Positions 6,637 through 15,219 of a DNA stretch of 43,444 bases are shown here, one piece after another (the first letter of the stretch is position 1; every line of letters starts with the position of its first letter). Position numbers and translations under genes: made by a program. Under the pieces are notes generated by a model. It was not told the DNA's origin and did no database searches. It saw only the letters and a program-made list of their open reading frames with translations. The stretch is from a virus (lineage: Duplodnaviria > Heunggongvirae > Uroviricota > Caudoviricetes), in the IMG/VR virus record IMGVR_UViG_2851966386_000001, positions 1 through 43,444 of that record, one strand, 5' to 3'.

Positions 6637-7263
6637 TTAGAGTTCGTATTGAACTCCTTTGACTACACCAATGATAAGGCAATTACCATTGATAGGGATG
6701 TTGGGATACCGAGGATTTAATGGCACTAAAAACTTTTGAGGGCCATCGATGACTAATTTTTTTACTGTAGCTTCGTTTGTTCCATCAAGTCGAGCGATGA
6801 CTATTTTTCCATGACGAGGTTCTGCATCTGGATCTACAATCACTGTTGCGCCTTCTGGTATTGTTGGGAGGCCATTAGGGTTAGTCATGGAGTCACCTTT
6901 AACCTCTAATGCAAATGAGTTATCACCAATCTTTAATGATGTATCTACCCACTTGTCCACTTCACTAAACACTTCTGCTGCCCTGCACTCAGTAAACTGC
7001 CCAGCCTGAACCCACGATATTACAGGAACTCTGCGCATGTTTGTGACGAGTTTGCCTTCAAACTCAGCACCATAAAGAATGTAATCTATTGACGTATTGA
7101 AGAACTTCGCTAATTTCGAAAGTGCCTCCCCACCAGGGGTATTGATGTCTTTCTCCCAGTACCCCACAGCAACGTCGCTTACTCCACAAAATTTACCCAA
7201 TTCTTTCTGGGACGTTCCGGTAACTCTTCTCAGAGCTTTTATACGCTGACCAACCGTTTCCAT
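6637..7263 (-). CDS. cI: CI-type immunity repressor (HTH_XRE plus S24 LexA-like peptidase)
   Basis: N-terminal HTH, an Ala-Gly autocleavage site (WVQAGQF), and a GDSM...KK Ser/Lys dyad; divergent from cro. Confidence 0.9.
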   Translation of the reverse strand: METVGQRIKALRRVTGTSQKELGKFCGVSDVAVGYWEKDINTPGGEALSKLAKFFNTSIDYILYGAEFEGKLVTNMRRVPVISWVQAGQFTECRAAEVFSEVDKWVDTSLKIGDNSFALEVKGDSMTNPNGLPTIPEGATVIVDPDAEPRHGKIVIARLDGTNEATVKKLVIDGPQKFLVPLNPRYPNIPINGNCLIIGVVKGVQYEL

Positions 7264-7285
7264 AGGAGCACCATTTCTTGAATTG

Positions 7286-7348
7286 CTAAGTAATCTTAGT
7301 TTTTATTGACCAAAGATAGATTTGTAATTAGCATCTAATAAAACTTAG
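7286..7348. promoter_or_regulatory. oR operator region with pR/pRM
   Basis: Two 14-bp palindromes, CTAAGTAATCTTAG (7286..7299) and CTAATAAAACTTAG (7335..7348), between divergent cI and cro; candidate pR -35 TTGACC (7306..7311) and -10 TAGCAT (7329..7334). Confidence 0.6.
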
Positions 7349-7360
7349 TTTGGAGGGCGT

Positions 7361-7561
7361 ATGACAACTGACGATATCGAAAGCTACTTCGGCAGTATTG
7401 AGAAAGTTGCTGCTTTTTTCGGCATAACAACTGAAGCCGTTTATCAGTGGCGAAACCGTCCGGGCCAGTTAATTCCAAAAGGACGTGCAGCAGAAGCTGC
7501 ATATAGAACTTGCGGACGGTTGCCATTTAAACCTGAGCTTTATGAAAAATCTAATGGATAA
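7361..7561 (+). CDS. cro: Cro-like repressor (66 aa)
   Basis: Small HTH protein divergent from cI; GGAGGG RBS upstream of the ATG. Confidence 0.8.
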   Translation: MTTDDIESYFGSIEKVAAFFGITTEAVYQWRNRPGQLIPKGRAAEAAYRTCGRLPFKPELYEKSNG

Positions 7562-8150
7562 ATCGATTAACAGAAACCACAGAACGATGAGGCTAACCGT
7601 GGGTAAGCATCACTGGAAAGTAGAAAAACAGCCTGAGTGGTACGTGAAAGCTGTCAGAAAAACTATCGCAGCGTTGCCGGGTGGTTACGCTGAAGCAGCT
7701 GACTGGCTGGATGTAACAGAAAACGCATTATTTAACCGCCTTCGTGCCGATGGCGATCAGATTTTCCCGCTGGGATGGGCAATGATTTTGCAACGTGCTG
7801 GTGGAACTCACTTCATTGCTGACGCTGTGGCGCAGTCTGCAAATGGCGTCTTTGTGTCTCTTCCTGACGTCGAGGATGTGGACAACGCCGATATTAACCA
7901 GCGCCTGCTGGAAGTCATTGAACAGATTGGCAGTTATTCCAGACAGATTCGTTCGGCAATCGAAGACGGTGTGGTGGAACCGCATGAGAAGACAGCAATT
8001 AACGACGAGCTGTATCTCTCAATTTCGAAGCTGCAGGAGCATGCAGCACTGGTCTACAAAATCTTTTGCATTTCAGAAAGTAATGACGCCCGCGAGTGTG
8101 CAGCTCCGGGCGCCGTGGCGTGTCGTGACTGTGGAGAAACTAACGCATGA
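7542..8150 (+). CDS. Hypothetical regulatory protein in the cII position (about 202 aa)
   Basis: ATG at 7542 overlapping the cro 3 prime end (an alternative ATG is at 7554); acidic and Cys-containing C-terminus; no confident family assignment. Confidence 0.5.
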
Positions 8151-8485
8151 ACAGTTTAACAACACACTACCGTCGCTCGCAACTGATTGCGCTTCCTGTA
8201 CCGGGTGGAAAAGCGAAGGTGGAGTATTGCTATGCAGTTAATGTACCAGGTGACAGGGAAATTGTAACCCACAGCTTTGCTGAGTGGGCTGTGGGTGATT
8301 TCAACCGGCAGAAGGAGACAGTCCTTTGCGACAAGTTAACCGCTGGTTCAAAGATCACTACGGAGTGCCCGTCAGAGTCATTCGTTGGGAGCCGGAAACA
8401 CAACGAGTTATCTACCTCCGCGAAGGCTATGAGCATGAGTGCTTCAGCCCGCTCGAACAGTTTCGTCGTAAATTCAGGGAAATAG
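8147..8485 (+). CDS. Hypothetical protein (uncertain frame; see alternative ORF 8326..8505)
   Basis: ATG with a GGAGA RBS and an ATGA overlap with the upstream gene, but the C-terminal half is low-complexity. A second frame (TTG 8326, AAGGAGA RBS) gives a more protein-like 59-aa product ending at 8505. Confidence 0.35.
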
Positions 8486-8494
8486 AGGTCGGTC

Positions 8495-9436
8495 ATGAGC
8501 ACTAAATTAACCGGCTATGTATGGGATGGTTGCGCTGCATCAGGCATGAAATTATCCAGCGTGGCAATTATGGCCCGCCTGGCTGATTTCAGTAATGACG
8601 AAGGTGTGTGCTGGCCATCAATTGAAACCATTGCCCGTCAGATTGGCGCGGGGATGAGTACCGTCAGAACGGCTATCGCACGGCTGGAAGCAGAAGGCTG
8701 GTTAACGCGTAAGGCGCGTCGCCAGGGTAACCGCAATGCGTCGAATGTTTATCAGCTTAACGTTGCGAAGCTTCAGGCAGCGGCATTTTCTCAACTGTCA
8801 GATTCTGACCCGTCAAAATCTGACGCATCAAAATCTGACACGTCAAAATTTGATGCGTCGAAATCTGGCAAAAAAGCGGGTTTTCACCCGTCAGAATCTG
8901 GCGGGGATCCGTCAGTAAAATCAAAACATGATCCGTCAGATAAAAAACCTTCTCGTCCGGACGCTTCGCAACCGGACACGCAGACGGCTGAACAGGATTT
9001 TTTAACTCGCCATCCTGACGCGGTTGTATTCAGCCCTAAAAAGCGCCAGTGGGGAACGCAGGATGATTTGACCTGCGCACAGTGGCTCTGGAAAAAAATC
9101 ATTGCCCTGTACGAGCAGGCCGCCGAATGTGACGGCGAGGTGGTTCGTCCCAAAGAACCGAACTGGACAGCATGGGCAAACGAAATTCGCCTGATGTGTG
9201 TGCAGGATGGTCGTACTCACAAACAAATCTGCGAGATGTACAGCCGCGTCAGCCGCGATCCGTTCTGGTGCCGTAACGTGCTCAGCCCGTCGAAGTTGCG
9301 GGAAAAATGGGATGAGCTTTCCCTGCGCTTATCGCCATCCGTCAGCACGCACACAGAAAAACGTGAAGACCCGTACTTCAAAGCCAGTTACGACAACGTG
9401 GACTACAGCCAGATCCCGGCAGGATTCAGGGGGTGA
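8495..9436 (+). CDS. Replication initiator (O-like; N-terminal winged-helix, internal iteron-encoded repeat linker)
   Basis: AGAGG RBS; N-terminal HTH region; the Ser/Asp/Lys repeat linker (SDPSKSDASKSDTSKFDASKS) is encoded by DNA iterons, as in lambda O where ori lies inside the gene. Confidence 0.7.
   Translation: MSTKLTGYVWDGCAASGMKLSSVAIMARLADFSNDEGVCWPSIETIARQIGAGMSTVRTAIARLEAEGWLTRKARRQGNRNASNVYQLNVAKLQAAAFSQLSDSDPSKSDASKSDTSKFDASKSGKKAGFHPSESGGDPSVKSKHDPSDKKPSRPDASQPDTQTAEQDFLTRHPDAVVFSPKKRQWGTQDDLTCAQWLWKKIIALYEQAAECDGEVVRPKEPNWTAWANEIRLMCVQDGRTHKQICEMYSRVSRDPFWCRNVLSPSKLREKWDELSLRLSPSVSTHTEKREDPYFKASYDNVDYSQIPAGFRG
8808..8945. repeat. Origin-like iterons (4 tandem 15-bp TCAAAATCTGAC-type repeats, then 4 CCGTCAG-type repeats) inside the initiator gene
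   Basis: Direct repeats CGTCAAAATCTGAC / CATCAAAATCTGAC / CGTCAAAATTTGAT / CGTCGAAATCTGGC, followed by CCGTCAGAATCTGG, CCGTCAGTAAAATC and CCGTCAGATAAAAAACC. Confidence 0.65.
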
Positions 9437-9438
9437 TC

Positions 9439-9927
9439 ATGAGTCTTTTGAATGACGTTCAGAAATTCATTGAAGCCCATCCGGGCTGTACTTCCGGAGA
9501 CATTGCGGATGCTTTTGCAGGTTACTCACGGCAGCGCGTTCTGCAGTCAGCAAGCAAGTTACGTCAGAGTGGGCGTGTGGCTCACCGTTGTGAAGGAGAT
9601 ACACACAGACATTTCCCGCGCCTGACTGAGAGAGCGCAGGATCCGGAACCACAACCAGTTCGTGAAACCAGACCTGTGCGCAATTTCTATGTCGGCACTA
9701 ACGACCCGCGGGTGATTTTGTGCCTGACCCGCCAGGCGGAAGAACTGGAGTCCAGGGGCTTATACCGTCGTGCTGCAACGGTGTGGATGGCGGCATTCCG
9801 TGAAAGCCACTCCCAGCCAGAGCGAAACAATTTTCTTGCGCGTCGTGAGCGGTGTTTACGGAAAAGCAGCAAGCGCGCTGTACCGGGTGATGAGTGGTAT
9901 CTGTCAGGGAATTACGTGGGGGCTTAA
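9439..9927 (+). CDS. Winged-helix protein with PerC-like C-terminal domain (PerC/Pch-family transcriptional activator-like)
   Basis: ATG at 9439 immediately after the initiator stop; the C-terminal LESRGLYRRAATVWMAAF...RRERC resembles the PerC family motif as recalled. Confidence 0.5.
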   Translation: MSLLNDVQKFIEAHPGCTSGDIADAFAGYSRQRVLQSASKLRQSGRVAHRCEGDTHRHFPRLTERAQDPEPQPVRETRPVRNFYVGTNDPRVILCLTRQAEELESRGLYRRAATVWMAAFRESHSQPERNNFLARRERCLRKSSKRAVPGDEWYLSGNYVGA

Positions 9928-10580
9928 TGAGTAATAAATATTGCCAGGCGCTGGTGGAACTGCGGAACAAACCAGCCCATGAACTGAAGGAAGTGGGCGA
10001 TCAGTGGCGCACGCCGGACAACATTTTCTGGGGAATTAACACCCTGTTTGGCCCGTTTGTTCTGGATCTGTTCACTGACGGTGATAACGCCAAATGTGCT
10101 GCGTATTACACGGCGGAAGACAACGCGCTGGCGCATGACTGGTCAGAACGCCTTGCGGAGCTTAAAGGTGCTGCCTTTGGTAATCCCCCATACAGCCGCG
10201 CCAGTCAGCATGAGGGGCAATACATCACAGGCATGCGTTACATCATGAAGCATGCCAGTGCCATGCGTGATAAAGGTGGGCGCAATGTTTTCCTGATCAA
10301 AGCTGCCACCAGCGAAGTGTGGTGGCCGGAAGATGCAGATCATATTGCTTTTATTCGCGGGCGTATCGGTTTTGAACTGCCTGCCTGGTTTATCCCGAAG
10401 GATGAGAAGCAGGTGCCGACAGGAGCTTTCTTCGCTGGTGCTATTGCTGTTTTCGACAAGACCTGGAAGGGACCGGCAATCAGCTACATCGGGCGCGATG
10501 AACTTGAGGCATGTGGTGAGGCCTTTCTGGCGCAGGTTCGCCAGCAGGCAGAAAAACTGGTCAGGGAGATGGTGGCATGA
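9927..10580 (+). CDS. Phage N6-adenine DNA methyltransferase (Dam-like, orphan)
   Basis: NPPY catalytic motif (GNPPYSR); start at ATG 9927 (MSNKYCQ) with a TAATG overlap with the upstream gene; no adjacent restriction gene. Confidence 0.75.
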   Translation: MSNKYCQALVELRNKPAHELKEVGDQWRTPDNIFWGINTLFGPFVLDLFTDGDNAKCAAYYTAEDNALAHDWSERLAELKGAAFGNPPYSRASQHEGQYITGMRYIMKHASAMRDKGGRNVFLIKAATSEVWWPEDADHIAFIRGRIGFELPAWFIPKDEKQVPTGAFFAGAIAVFDKTWKGPAISYIGRDELEACGEAFLAQVRQQAEKLVREMVA

Positions 10581-10903
10581 CGACGTTAACTCAATGTCAG
10601 CAGCAGGTGCTGGATATGCTGATTTCTTATCAGAAAGAACGTGGCTTCCCGCCAACCAATCAGGAGGTGGCAACCATGCTGGGATACCGTTCGGTGAATG
10701 CAGCGGTGGAGCATCTTCGCGCACTGGAGAAAAAAGGCGTCATCACGATAAAGCGTGGTGTGGCCCGGGGGATAACGCTTCATACCGCGGTCAAGGACGA
10801 CGACAGCGAGGCGGTCGGGATTATCCGCTCACTGCTTGCCGGTGAGGAAAACGCCAGGCTGCGTGCAGCCCACTGGTTACATGAGAGGGGTCTGAAAGTA
10901 TGA
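10577..10903 (+). CDS. LexA N-terminal DNA-binding-domain protein (no peptidase domain)
   Basis: MTTLTQCQQQVLDMLISYQKERGFPPTNQEVATMLGYRSVNAAVEHLRALEKKGVI matches the LexA winged-helix domain pattern; 108 aa only. Confidence 0.65.
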   Translation: MTTLTQCQQQVLDMLISYQKERGFPPTNQEVATMLGYRSVNAAVEHLRALEKKGVITIKRGVARGITLHTAVKDDDSEAVGIIRSLLAGEENARLRAAHWLHERGLKV

Positions 10904-11289
10904 AGCTGATCCTGCCTTTCCCGCCCAGCGTGAACACGTACTGGCGACACCCCAACAAAGGGGCGTTTGCAGGTAAGAGCCTGATAAGCGCGGCGGGGCG
11001 CAAATTCCAGAGCGCGGCGTGTGCAGCAATAGTTGAGCAGTTACGTCGTCTGCCAAAACCAACGTCGGCACCTGCTTCAGTGGAGATCGTGTTGTTTCCT
11101 CCGGATAACCGGATCCGCGATCTGGACAACTATAACAAGGCGCTGTTTGACACCCTGACCCACGCGGGTGTGTGGGAAGACGACAGCCAGGTGAAAAGAA
11201 TGCTGGTGGAGTGGGGACCGGTTATCCCGGAAGGGAAGGTCGAGATCACTATCAGTAAGTACGAGAAAACGGCGGGTGCAGCCGCCTGA
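10900..11289 (+). CDS. rusA: Holliday junction resolvase RusA
   Basis: PPSVNTYWRH...RDLDNYNKALFDTLTHAGVWEDDSQV matches RusA motifs, including the catalytic Asp cluster. Confidence 0.85.
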   Translation: MKLILPFPPSVNTYWRHPNKGAFAGKSLISAAGRKFQSAACAAIVEQLRRLPKPTSAPASVEIVLFPPDNRIRDLDNYNKALFDTLTHAGVWEDDSQVKRMLVEWGPVIPEGKVEITISKYEKTAGAAA

Positions 11290-11308
11290 TCAAGAGGAGA
11301 AACGAAAT

Positions 11309-12106
11309 ATGAATAATCTGATGGTCATTGATGGTATTGAAGTTCGTCGTGATGCTTATGGGCGTTACAGCCTGAACGATCTGCACAGGGCTGCCGGTTC
11401 TCTGGATAAGCATAAGCCTGCATTCTGGCTCCGCAATGAGCAAACTGAACGTTTAATAAGCGAGTTGCAGATTTGCAACTCGGTCAATATAGAGCCAGTT
11501 AACGTTATTCGTGGCGGAAATAACCAGGGGACGTATGTCTGCAAAGAACTGGTGTATGCCTATGCAATGTGGATCAGCCCGTCATTCCATCTGAAGGTGA
11601 TCCGTACTTTCGATATGGTAACCAGCACACCGGAAAAAATATCCGGGCAGGCTGCTGACAAGATGCAGGCTGGCGTGATCCTGCTGGACTTTATGCGCAG
11701 GGAATTAAACCTGTCTAACTCATCAGTGCTTGGAGCCTGTCAGAAGCTTCAGGAGGCTGTTGGCTTACCGAATCTGGCACCGCGCTATGCCATTGATGCT
11801 CCTGCTGACGCGCCTGATGGCTCAAGTCGCCCCACGCTGTCGCTGAGTGCACTGCTGAAACAGTATGGTATCCGCCTTACGGCTAATCAGGCATATCACC
11901 AGATGGTGAAGCTGGGGATCGTCGAGCAGCGCGAACGATACAGCCGTACCGCGATTAACAACATCAAAAAATTCTGGTCGCTGCCAGCGAAAGGCTGCAT
12001 GTTCGGCAAGAACATCACCAGTCCTGCAAATCCGCGCGAGACGCAGCCGCATTTCTTCGAATCCCGATTCCCTGAGCTGTTAAAGCTGCTCGATACCGTT
12101 CATTGA
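11309..12106 (+). CDS. KilA-N domain protein (antirepressor-like)
   Basis: Start at ATG 11309 with a GAGGAG RBS; N-terminal KilA-N-like region (MVIDGIEVRRDAYGRYSLNDLHRAAG...KPAFWLRNEQTERLI). Confidence 0.65.
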   Translation: MNNLMVIDGIEVRRDAYGRYSLNDLHRAAGSLDKHKPAFWLRNEQTERLISELQICNSVNIEPVNVIRGGNNQGTYVCKELVYAYAMWISPSFHLKVIRTFDMVTSTPEKISGQAADKMQAGVILLDFMRRELNLSNSSVLGACQKLQEAVGLPNLAPRYAIDAPADAPDGSSRPTLSLSALLKQYGIRLTANQAYHQMVKLGIVEQRERYSRTAINNIKKFWSLPAKGCMFGKNITSPANPRETQPHFFESRFPELLKLLDTVH

Positions 12107-12107
12107 G

Positions 12108-13103
12108 GTGACCGTGAGAGCACTACTGACCCCTGAAATTGCCCCGCGTATGGGGATCGTATTGTTCAGGCCAGGTTCAGAGCTGATGCCCCTGTTTATG
12201 CAGGGGCGTGTCCTGCTGGAGCCTGAGCCGGAACGTTATTCATCTTTCGCCAGTGGTGCCGTTCCGGCGGCATCACAACCGCTGGCGGATGATCCTGCCG
12301 TTCGGGCCGTGTTCCGCAATGAGGCAGTGATCCGTCGTGCTGGTGGCGTGGAATGTCTTGAAAGCTGGTTACTTCGTGAAAAGGGCTGTCAGTGGCCTCA
12401 TTCCGACTGGCACAGCGAGAACATGACCACAATGCGGCACGCTCCGGGCGCAATCCGTCTGTGCTGGCACTGTGATAACCAGCTGCGTGACCAGTTCACG
12501 GAACGGCTGGAATCAATGGCAACGGATAACTGTGCCCGCTGGGTGTTGTCTGTCGTGCGTCGGGATCTCGGTTTTGATGACAGTCACGTTGTGACAATGC
12601 CGGAACTGTGCTGGTGGCTGGTTCGTAATGACCTGGCGGATGCCTTGCCGGAAAGTGCAGCCCGTAAGGCACTGAGATTACCGAAGCCTGTTGTGCCGTC
12701 TGTCACCCGGGAAAGTGACCTTGTTCCTTCTGTTCCTGCCACCAGCATCATCCAGGATAAAGCGAAAAAGGTGCTGGCGCTGAAAGTGGATCCGGAGTCG
12801 CCGGAGTCTTTTATGTTACGCCCAAAACGTCGCCGCTGGGTTAATGAAAAGTACACGCGCTGGGTTAAGACACAACCGTGTGCATGTTGTGGAAAGCCCG
12901 CTGATGATCCCCACCACCTGATAGGTCACGGTCAGGGTGGAATGGGAACAAAAGCGCATGACCTTTTTGTGTTGCCTTTGTGCAGAAAGCATCACGACGA
13001 GCTGCATGCGGATACCGTGGCATTTGAAGAGAAGTATGGTTCCCAGCTGGAGCTGATATTTCGTTTTATCGATCGTGCGCTGGCAATTGGCGTGCTGGCC
13101 TGA
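12108..13103 (+). CDS. DUF968-like protein (YdfU-like), Cys/His-rich C-terminus
   Basis: GTG start directly after the upstream stop; C-terminal CxxC...HH...H cluster (CACCGKPADDPHHLIGHGQGG...CRKHHDELH); family assigned from memory. Confidence 0.5.
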   Translation: MTVRALLTPEIAPRMGIVLFRPGSELMPLFMQGRVLLEPEPERYSSFASGAVPAASQPLADDPAVRAVFRNEAVIRRAGGVECLESWLLREKGCQWPHSDWHSENMTTMRHAPGAIRLCWHCDNQLRDQFTERLESMATDNCARWVLSVVRRDLGFDDSHVVTMPELCWWLVRNDLADALPESAARKALRLPKPVVPSVTRESDLVPSVPATSIIQDKAKKVLALKVDPESPESFMLRPKRRRWVNEKYTRWVKTQPCACCGKPADDPHHLIGHGQGGMGTKAHDLFVLPLCRKHHDELHADTVAFEEKYGSQLELIFRFIDRALAIGVLA

Positions 13104-13121
13104 TTTTTGTGGGGTAAGTTG

Positions 13122-13466
13122 ATGCGTGATATGTATGAAGTATTGGACCGCTGGGGAGCATGGGCTGCAGCAGACAACAGTGGTGTGGACTGGCAGCCGG
13201 TAGCAGCAGGCTTCAAGGGGCTTTTACCTCATGGCAAAAAGTCACGGATTCAGTGTGATGATGACGAAGGCATTATGATAGACAGTTGTGTGGCTCGGTT
13301 GAGAAAGTATAAACCAGAGGAATATGAGCTCATCATAGCCCACTTTGTTATTGGTATCTCATTACGCACTATTGCCAAAAGGAGAAGGTGCTCTGATGGC
13401 ACTATTAGGAAGGAGTTGCAAACCGCAATCGGTTTTATAGAGGGGGTTGTAAGTATACTTGTGTAA
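13122..13466 (+). CDS. Putative late antiterminator (Q-like, small family)
   Basis: ATG at 13122 with a GGGGTAA RBS; last gene before the lysis module; C-terminal HTH-like segment. Assignment by position and recall of a small antiterminator-Q family, not verified. Confidence 0.45.
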   Translation: MRDMYEVLDRWGAWAAADNSGVDWQPVAAGFKGLLPHGKKSRIQCDDDEGIMIDSCVARLRKYKPEEYELIIAHFVIGISLRTIAKRRRCSDGTIRKELQTAIGFIEGVVSILV

Positions 13467-13476
13467 AATAATAAAA

Positions 13477-13491
13477 GGCGGTAGTACCGCC
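13477..13491 (-). terminator. Intrinsic terminator of the AT-rich minus-strand operon
   Basis: Perfect palindrome GGCGGTA-G-TACCGCC, followed on the minus strand by TTTTATTATTTT; sits between the Q-like stop and the stop of the last operon gene. Confidence 0.65.
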
Positions 13492-14106
13492 TTAATGATC
13501 GAATCGTTGTATGTTTTCATGGAATCTACAAAAGTGAATAGATATTTTGAATAGTAAAATGTAGAAACCAACTTGACTTAAAGTTATGGCTTTGCATTTA
13601 TCATTCAAGAGTTTTTGTAATTCTTCCGTTGGTAATTGGTATACATCATCAAGAAAAACGATGCATTCTTCTAAGTTGTCTGATTCAGGAAGATAAAAAA
13701 TATTAGTAATTAACTGCTTCCTTATAGCATCAATTTTGCTATCTATTGAAGTCTTAGAAACTCCGTTGGAGAGAAGAATAGCTTCGAACTTAGATAAACT
13801 TACTAACGGAGCAAAGACTGCACGCATTGGCACATCACGATTATTACTTGTATCTATATCGCAACTGTTGCTTAATATAATGCCTCGTGTTTTTTTAGTC
13901 CCTTTAATTGAATATACTGTAAGCTCCTTAAATATATCTCCCTGAAGTGCAGCATTTTTCAGATCATCATGATAATTGCTAAGGTAGTAGTTAGTGTTTT
14001 CAGGGAAATCTCTAAGTGCATTTATTAGCCCTTCTTTTTGATGAGCTGTTAAATAATATGGAATTTGATCTTTGAATTTCTCGATATCAAAAATGTTATT
14101 ACTCAT
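13492..14106 (-). CDS. Hypothetical protein C of AT-rich operon (204 aa), no recognisable domain
   Basis: ATG at 14106, 3 nt after the upstream stop; very AT-rich, Lys/Asn/Ile-rich composition; hydrophobic segment near the C-terminus. Confidence 0.6.
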   Translation of the reverse strand: MSNNIFDIEKFKDQIPYYLTAHQKEGLINALRDFPENTNYYLSNYHDDLKNAALQGDIFKELTVYSIKGTKKTRGIILSNSCDIDTSNNRDVPMRAVFAPLVSLSKFEAILLSNGVSKTSIDSKIDAIRKQLITNIFYLPESDNLEECIVFLDDVYQLPTEELQKLLNDKCKAITLSQVGFYILLFKISIHFCRFHENIQRFDH

Positions 14107-14109
14107 CAC

Positions 14110-14454
14110 TTAATCCAAGTATAAATCCCACAGTGAAGCATGAACGACTTTATTTATTTCACTGCCTAAAGACACCTGGTTTGTCGATAATTTTTCATAA
14201 AAGTTTGTCATCGAGACTGCAAGTCTTTGATCAACTGAGATTGTGCTCCCTGCTTTATATGTTTGTGTGATGGAATGAACTGAATCGGTAGTTGAAGACT
14301 TATACTCCAAAGCGTGATTTTTGACGATTAAACTTTGTTGAGGACCATGCTGTTGATTTTGGGCAATGTCTGTTAATGCAGTTATATGCAGACCATATAA
14401 AACCAAAGTTAATACTTGAAGTTGAGCTCGATAAACATGATGAGACGGATACAT
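14110..14454 (-). CDS. Hypothetical protein B of AT-rich operon (114 aa), possible N-terminal hydrophobic helix
   Basis: ATG at 14454 with a GGTGG RBS 7 nt upstream; hydrophobic stretch LQVLTLVLYGLHITAL. Confidence 0.55.
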   Translation of the reverse strand: MYPSHHVYRAQLQVLTLVLYGLHITALTDIAQNQQHGPQQSLIVKNHALEYKSSTTDSVHSITQTYKAGSTISVDQRLAVSMTNFYEKLSTNQVSLGSEINKVVHASLWDLYLD

Positions 14455-14469
14455 ATCATACCACCATTT

Positions 14470-15219
14470 CTATTTGTAGGATGGTTCTAGTTCTTGAATT
14501 GTTGACTCTTTAAGGCAACTAAAGAAAGCTAATTTATTACAGGAGTGAAGATCATCAAGAATTTTTTTTGGTTCGTTTTTAAACTTATCTATTTCATCAG
14601 TATTAGTGATTTGCCTAATGCTGTCTATGTCTAGGATTAGTCCTTTTTTATTAAATTCTCCATTATCTGACATGACTAAAGCATGAGATAATATTTGAAT
14701 TATATTTAGAAATGCGCCTTCATTTTTATCGATTCTGATATTGATCGGATAATTAGACATAGACTCGCCAGCCATATTTAAGCTGACGTTTAGCTTATCA
14801 AATAAATTAGAATCGTCTTCTTTTGGGAAAAAATCTACATACTTTAATGAGTAGCGGATGATGTTGTCATTTAAATTTAATTTGTTAAGCTCATTTAATA
14901 CATGAATGATTTTTTCTCTAAAATGACTCCACCCTTGATATTTGGTGCTGGTGGATACAACAACACCATGGTCACTTAGTCCAATATAGTACCCTTCGAT
15001 TTCGAGGCGACTGACAACTGCGTAATGTAATTGTTCATCTCCCTCACGAACATTTTTAGGTATTTGACTGGGTGGTAAACTAATTACTGGTTTTGTACAA
15101 CCTAGAGCGTGAAAAAGAAACCCTGGAACTATTTCCGATATTTGTGTTTCTTTAGAAAAACGCATTTCGAAAGCAGCTTCGATTACTGGTTGTTTTGATA
15201 GAGATGTTGGAATGAGCAT
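14470..15219 (-). CDS. Hypothetical protein A of AT-rich operon (249 aa); N-terminal PVIEAAFEMRF motif
   Basis: First gene of a three-gene minus-strand operon; no homologue I can name with confidence. The N-terminal motif resembles what I recall of the TIGR04255 family (unverified). Confidence 0.6.
   Translation of the reverse strand: MLIPTSLSKQPVIEAAFEMRFSKETQISEIVPGFLFHALGCTKPVISLPPSQIPKNVREGDEQLHYAVVSRLEIEGYYIGLSDHGVVVSTSTKYQGWSHFREKIIHVLNELNKLNLNDNIIRYSLKYVDFFPKEDDSNLFDKLNVSLNMAGESMSNYPINIRIDKNEGAFLNIIQILSHALVMSDNGEFNKKGLILDIDSIRQITNTDEIDKFKNEPKKILDDLHSCNKLAFFSCLKESTIQELEPSYK

Follow-up and report, generated by a model that had tools for sequence, protein, structure and literature searches.

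A two-domain PerC family protein in the early operon of a lambdoid prophage, orthologous to E. coli YfdN, is a likely modulator of phage transcription

The closest described relatives of the protein considered here are the PerC protein of EPEC, the Pch regulators of EHEC and the ANR proteins. Pch relieves the silencing exerted by H-NS, StpA and Hha (PMC4764244), and Fukui et al. reported that H-NS failed to co-precipitate with PchA. The members of EHEC Pch groups 2 and 3 (PchD and PchE) are full PerC homologues and hardly activate ler at all (PMC5931665). ANR proteins bind AraC-family regulators and affect H-NS; helices 2 and 3 mediate the protein-protein binding by which they act, as described in the study from which the ANR signature used below is taken (PMC4983702). 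In E. coli K-12, the family is represented by yfdN, which Uhlich et al. (2018) called "the K12 unique PerC homologue" (PMC5931665). None of the E. coli papers naming yfdN that we consulted contains a functional test of the protein. The reports concern altered glycogen upon overexpression and membership of a predicted interaction cluster; in addition, yfdN was up 12.6-fold in CFT073 under NO stress, with the neighbouring prophage genes up together (PMC5320621). In UniProt-type names, YfdN is still "uncharacterized".

We analysed a stretch of phage DNA of 43,444 nucleotides (hereafter the window). The element that it represents is an intact lambdoid prophage of the SfV/SfII/mEp460 type, integrated at thrW, adjacent to proA. 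Over its first 25 kb, the window is 100% identical to several human and environmental E. coli chromosomes, some of them from NDM-named strains, and in these chromosomes the prophage sits at the tRNA-Thr gene beside proA. One gene of the prophage is, from its sequence, almost certainly the orthologue of K-12 yfdN. The protein is identical to K-12 YfdN (b2357, from the cryptic prophage CPS-53/KpLE1) at 160 of 164 residues (98%), and it matches PHROG 1324 over its full length (residues 1-161; 8.3e-78). This full-length similarity is accompanied by the conserved neighbours of the orthologous group, namely the replication gene together with the methylase and LexA-DBD/RusA genes.

The genes of phages SfII, SfV and mEp460 share 97-99% DNA identity with the window copy. 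The equivalents in the Shigella phages are orf40 of SfV and SfII_42, the latter annotated as "PerC transcriptional activator family protein", and sb43 of Salmonella phage ST64B encodes a protein that is 68% identical to that of the window. The gene is also carried by several Stx2a and Stx2c phages, some of O157. DNA copies that are 100% identical bear the RefSeq label "yfdN: PerC family transcriptional regulator"; neither the gene nor its assignment to the PerC family nor its occurrence in prophages is a discovery, all three being on record in RefSeq and the literature. The K-12 locus resembles that of the window in having a yfdO-type replication gene upstream and the yfdM/dam methylase downstream, as do SfV, SfII and ST64B. 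However, K-12 yfdN lies in a decayed prophage at argW and has truncated neighbours, whereas the window prophage is intact and occupies thrW.

In the window, yfdN is a real open reading frame on the plus strand (9439..9927), with 162 codons from ATG 9439 to the stop codon TAA at 9925-9927, as given both by the open reading frame list and by the sequence itself. The RefSeq/PGAP version of the gene begins two codons further 5', at GTG 9433 on the same strand, and encodes 164 aa. We consider ATG 9439 the better candidate for the start codon, because a Shine-Dalgarno-like AGGGGG (9428-9433) lies 5 nt upstream of it and because the methionine at this position is the first residue in nearly all of 32 aligned homologues. 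At the 5' junction, the replication gene ends with TGA (9434-9436), followed by 2 nt and then by the yfdN ATG. At the 3' junction, the sequence TAATG (9925-9929) contains both the yfdN stop and the overlapping ATG of the dam-family methylase. A GATC (Dam) site at 9435-9438 falls between AGGGGG and the yfdN ATG, in the overlap with the replication-gene stop; over the whole window, GATC is rarer than expected (122 observed versus about 170 expected).

The order of genes around yfdN is cI, cro, a cII-like gene (Phage_CP76), DUF4222, an HTH_36 gene, yfdN, the Dam-family methylase, a gene for a LexA DNA-binding domain only, RusA, KilA-N, DUF968 and Q. The HTH_36 gene (8495..9436, plus strand; Pfam HTH_36, 4.3e-11) encodes a 313-aa protein of the replication-initiator type. 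The methylase is a phage Dam-family N6-adenine DNA methyltransferase (9927..10580, plus strand; Pfam Dam PF05869, 2.2e-45), and the gene after it (10577-10903, plus strand; Pfam 2.9e-19) encodes a 108-aa protein that has the LexA DNA-binding domain and lacks the protease domain. This LexA-type gene is kept downstream of yfdN in most relatives, and its domain content is such that the product could occupy SOS boxes while being uncleavable.

An iteron-like array of five to six copies of a 15-bp unit (8783-8905; consensus about TCTGACACGTCAAAA, partly palindromic) lies inside the HTH_36 gene, where it encodes the repetitive S-K-S-D linker of the protein. By analogy with lambda O, the array is probably the replication origin of the phage. 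Upstream, a 59-aa DUF4222 ORF annotated by RefSeq (8326-8505; E = 8.6e-19) is overlapped in a different frame by a 112-aa ORF with no Pfam match (8147-8485). At the corresponding position, the annotation in the SfII record, like that of several gene callers, is a 112-aa ORF. Between Q and the holin gene, three genes on the minus strand (13492-15219), one of the TIGR04255 family and two hypothetical, occupy the slot that holds stx in Stx phages; this segment had no match among the PADLOC defence models.

A simple consensus scan of the plus strand gave no sigma-70-like promoter from 7334 to 13500 and no terminator-like site from 7143 to 12702. The GC content of yfdN is 0.55 and that of its neighbours 0.52-0.57. 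Since promoter-like and terminator-like sites are missing around it and its GC content is like that of its neighbours, yfdN is one of the internal genes of the early rightward operon rather than a moron. The SfV record has a putative dam promoter annotated within the 3' end of the gene. A repeat search around yfdN found the iterons of the replication gene only, and no candidate operator for YfdN.

The position of the gene is conserved over a wide range of divergence. A search of 1.8 billion representative proteins yielded about 25 clusters of full-length two-domain homologues with 25-47% identity, and the slot is still the same for homologues that are 25-45% identical, whether these come from phages of Escherichia and Salmonella or from genome and metagenome contigs with no assignment. 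We examined the contigs that encode homologues together with annotated phage records; a short contig (L008) gave no informative context. The gene upstream of the placed homologues is of the HTH_36/Phg_2220_C replication type, or in one case lambda P. Directly downstream, an N6-adenine methyltransferase gene, usually overlapping the yfdN stop, is present in nine of the 11 informative contexts, which are a sample rather than a survey. The LexA-DBD protein and RusA come after the methylase.

The methyltransferases belong to different Pfam families: Dam (PF05869) in the window, ST64B and contigs L016 and L019, D12 (PF02086) in L004, L006 and phage F1055, and MT-A70 (PF05063) in L005 and L017. In L004, the methyltransferase forms the C-terminal part of a 1096-aa ORF. 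The slot after yfdN, as seen in the window and in L004, L005, L006, L011, L016, L017 and L019, has undergone non-orthologous replacement at a fixed position. Phage 2H10 encodes a 96%-identical YfdN with no adjacent methylase. Because all of the contexts come from one syntenic lambdoid lineage, the adjacency of yfdN and the methylase may reflect inherited gene order combined with cassette replacement.

The two halves of YfdN also seem, in places, to occur separately (PHROGs 23071 and 2608; P0123, P0133 and P0143). We rejected these as genuine separate forms, the sequences being chimeras created by deletion or frameshift. In P0143, the N-terminus of a KilA-N protein is joined to the PerC core, and in P0133 the N-terminus of a replication protein takes its place; P0123 is a frameshifted form that contains the winged helix only and ends in the +1 frame of yfdN. 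Apparent N-only and C-only relatives with >90% identity are such chimeras in decaying prophages (L021 and L022). These chimeric remnants may be what lies behind the PHROG families that represent the two halves separately. Since prophage derivatives without the PerC half exist, this domain may be dispensable for prophage carriage.

The domain structure of YfdN can be given with near-certainty as a winged helix and a PerC core on a flexible linker, with a short conserved tail after the core. The N-terminal segment is encoded by 9439..9618 (plus strand, as for all of the segments below). In an AlphaFold2 model made with the 32 homologues, residues 3-60 form three helices and a beta hairpin with a pLDDT of about 90. 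Three helices followed by a beta-hairpin wing is the arrangement of the winged helix-turn-helix superfamily, and the segment has weak profile matches to BlaI/MecI, MarR and a PapI-type protein. The linker (residues 61-89; 9619..9705) is variable and, judging from pLDDT and the alignment, probably disordered: its pLDDT is about 49-52 at residues 61-80, reaching 78 by residue 90, and both its length and its sequence differ among the 32 homologues. How the two domains are placed with respect to each other is uncertain in the model (pTM 0.44).

The linker leads into a core of the PerC/ANR type (residues 90-143; 9706..9867), which is modelled as a three-helix, TPR-like unit. The initial annotation had noted a C-terminal resemblance to the PerC family, and profile searches bear this out. 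Pfam PerC (PF06069) matches residues 98-152 (9730-9894) with 38.9 bits (E = 1.1e-9), where the curated gathering cutoff is 22.6 bits, and all of the 32 aligned family members match the same model. Together with the AlphaFold2 model, this match also upholds the suggestion that the prophage carries a PerC domain fused to an N-terminal winged helix. We compared the core with EPEC PerC from plasmid pMAR2 and with PchA from prophage Sp4 of EHEC (E. coli O157:H7 Sakai). In hhalign, 19 YfdN-type C-domains aligned with these two proteins over 54 columns with 97.8% probability (E = 1e-12). BLASTP gave 32% identity to PerC over 56 aa and 41% identity to PchA over 44 aa. Indeed, L103, R111, A112, R136 and C139 are invariant across the 19 YfdN-type sequences, PerC and PchA, and YfdN has all of the core residues of PerC (L, R-R-A-A, W and R-x2-C).

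The C-domain of the model has a TPR/MIT-like, protein-binding fold, and on this basis the PerC core appears to be a TPR-like three-helix unit for protein binding. We found no solved structure that matched the PerC core by sequence, and no match for YfdN among the PADLOC defence models. Beyond the core, residues 153-161 (9895..9921) form a subfamily-specific tail, W-Y-L-S-G-N-Y-V-G, recognised by its conservation in the 32 homologues. Its consensus across homologues is [WC]-x-[LM]-[AS]-G-[RN]-[YF]-x-G, and conservation among the 32 is highest for G157 and for an aromatic residue at 159 (30 each), followed by G161 (29) and L155 (24). The tail is modelled at low confidence (pLDDT about 50). In a MAFFT alignment, this tail seemed to have a counterpart in F-R-N-Y-K at the C-terminus of PerC and Pch; we rejected this, the hhalign alignment stopping at column 67.

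Considered together, these observations suggest a picture in which the yfdN orthologue is a gene of the delayed-early operon whose two-module product modulates transcription during phage development, and we regard this picture as somewhat more probable than not. YfdN itself would most likely be a delayed-early modulator of phage transcription that is made on induction, acting by a mechanism that we infer from its two modules. In this proposal, yfdN would be a delayed-early gene of a rightward operon running through cro, the cII-like gene, DUF4222, the replication gene, yfdN, dam, the lexA-like gene and rusA and on to Q. From this position, it would be expected to be silent in a repressed lysogen and to be expressed on infection or induction. 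The 12.6-fold increase in CFT073, shared with the adjacent prophage genes, fits the production of YfdN only under these circumstances.

Once made, YfdN would be placed on DNA by its winged helix, and the TPR-like PerC/ANR core would contact another protein or a nucleoprotein complex, thereby altering transcription. Precedents for the partner of the core are silencing complexes of the H-NS/StpA type, as for Pch, and AraC-family regulators or H-NS, as for the ANR proteins. An anti-silencing step in particular, suggested by analogy, has in our estimation well under an even chance of being correct. YfdN would thus modulate transcription in phage development, and host genes would be affected, if at all, as a side effect of induction and not through a dedicated LEE switch. 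The proposal concerns a very common E. coli prophage protein, with a fixed place between a replication gene and an adenine methylase.

The initial annotation had gone further and suggested, from the analogy with Pch, that the protein could link the prophage to host gene regulation. As a Pch-like activator, YfdN would switch on ler/LEE1 or an equivalent host virulence regulator. The shared core, with its invariant L, RRAA, W and R-x2-C residues, speaks for such a role, as does the carriage of yfdN by some of the Stx2a and Stx2c phages of O157. Moreover, for their tests of Pch proteins on ler::lacZ, Uhlich et al. first removed yfdN from MG1655, and therefore treated it as a possible confounder (PMC5931665). 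However, the partial match to the PerC model, the distribution of the gene, its early-operon context and the weak activity of PchD and PchE all tell against the proposal, which we consider very unlikely. YfdN is missing positions 60-90 of the PerC model, which PerC and PchA have, and even PchD and PchE, as full PerC homologues, scarcely activate ler. Among 5426 complete E. coli genomes, 2673 contain yfdN-like DNA, compared with 697 that have ler/LEE1 (including the ler promoter) and 673 that have group-1 pch, so at least about 74% of the yfdN carriers are without LEE; pch tracks LEE and yfdN does not. Phages of Shigella and Salmonella carry the gene as well; yfdN, unlike the moron-like pchA, is no moron; and the chromosomes that match the first 25 kb of the window belong to human and environmental isolates, several of them NDM-named. 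YfdN-type genes are core early genes of phages and are present in roughly one in two of the complete E. coli genomes, and the label "PerC family" should not be taken to mean "virulence activator". A different kind of host-directed function would be that of an ANR-like anti-activator, in which the core inhibits an AraC-family regulator of the host, or H-NS, by protein contact alone and the winged helix serves for oligomerisation rather than DNA binding. YfdN scores higher against the NCBIfam ANR model (NF033650) than either of its better known relatives (23.4 bits, compared with 18.2 for PerC and 13.6 for PchA), it has the ANR signature spacing A-x3-E-x7-A-x3-W-x2-A, and its core is modelled with a TPR-like, protein-binding fold. 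Nevertheless, all three scores lie below the curated cutoff of 32 bits, YfdN is an 18-kDa protein with an extra domain whereas ANR proteins are stand-alone proteins of 4-10 kDa, and the annotation of the left 22 kb of the window prophage contains no gene of the AraC family. An anti-activator of this kind therefore seems unlikely to us.

The neighbours of yfdN suggest other possibilities. YfdN might work with the N6-adenine methyltransferase of the phage as its partner or reader, either controlling its expression or binding DNA according to methylation state. A methyltransferase from one of three Pfam families (PF05869, PF02086 and PF05063) directly follows yfdN in nine of the 11 sampled contexts, and the weak profile matches of the winged helix include a PapI-type protein; PapI acts in a Dam-dependent switch. 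Sensing of 6mA is within the reach of prokaryotic winged helices (PMC11037411). On the other hand, the nearly identical YfdN of 2H10 has no neighbouring methylase, the adjacency is known from one syntenic lineage and may be inherited order with cassette replacement, and the similarity of the winged helix is generic, which together make such a partnership improbable. More speculatively, YfdN-type proteins could be a phage-specific class of regulators in which a winged helix delivers a mini-TPR module of the PerC/ANR type and which is coupled to the phage adenine methyltransferase. Such proteins would read or set the methylation state of early phage DNA, or would counter the silencing by H-NS of phage DNA that has just been replicated and methylated. 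If true, this would explain why the pairing has been kept despite at least two replacements of the methylase by unrelated families, but we regard it as a long shot. It is equally from its surroundings that YfdN could be taken for a replication accessory, a second replication gene product analogous to lambda P or to a helicase loader adaptor. In nearly all contexts, the yfdN start overlaps the stop of the HTH_36/Phg_2220_C initiator-type gene or lies a few bases from it, and the window prophage has no DnaB, DnaC or P gene. However, one homologue with 40% identity is encoded directly after a lambda P gene, so that YfdN-type proteins and P coexist, and on these grounds we rejected a replacement for lambda P as the main reading. 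The combination of a winged helix with a PerC core bears no resemblance to helicase loaders, and prophage derivatives without the PerC half persist, although these may be defective. A replication role of any kind is, in our view, highly doubtful.

As a probable delayed-early modulator, YfdN is related to several described regulators and is distinct from each of them. PerC of EPEC (pEAF/pMAR2) and PchA, PchB and PchC of EHEC share with YfdN a homologous helical core of about 55 residues, at 32-41% identity. However, PerC and PchA cover essentially the whole of the 90-position PF06069 model (positions 1-90 with 143 bits and 1-89 with 149 bits, respectively), whereas YfdN covers positions 5-59 only, with 39 bits, and is without positions 60-90; it thus falls short of the whole-model coverage seen in PerC and PchA. 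Furthermore, PerC and PchA stand alone as proteins of 89-104 aa, whereas YfdN has, in addition, a winged helix at its N-terminus, a linker and a tail of its own. The genomic settings are equally different. In the late region of Sp4, pchA stands by itself on the reverse strand, next to IS629 and lysis genes. In contrast, yfdN lies inside the early rightward operon, with the replication gene abutting it and the start of the Dam methylase overlapped, and is thus not the stand-alone, moron-like late-region gene typical of group-1 Pch.

The likeness to the ANR proteins Aar and Rnr consists of three predicted helices and the presence in YfdN of the published signature spacing. Unlike YfdN, ANR proteins are stand-alone anti-activators of 4-10 kDa that are encoded alongside AraC-family regulators; YfdN, with its sub-threshold score, its 162 aa and its extra domain, is not a member of that family. 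A looser parallel exists with regulators that combine an HTH with TPRs, such as PlcR and those of the Rap type. YfdN has only about 1.5 TPR-like repeats, its winged helix is not an HTH of the XRE type, and there is no sequence relationship, so the resemblance lies in a possible mode of working and not in membership. Finally, a TPR-like, protein-binding core of the PerC/ANR type, as modelled for YfdN, would be in keeping with PerC and Pch having yielded no classical DNA-binding motif.
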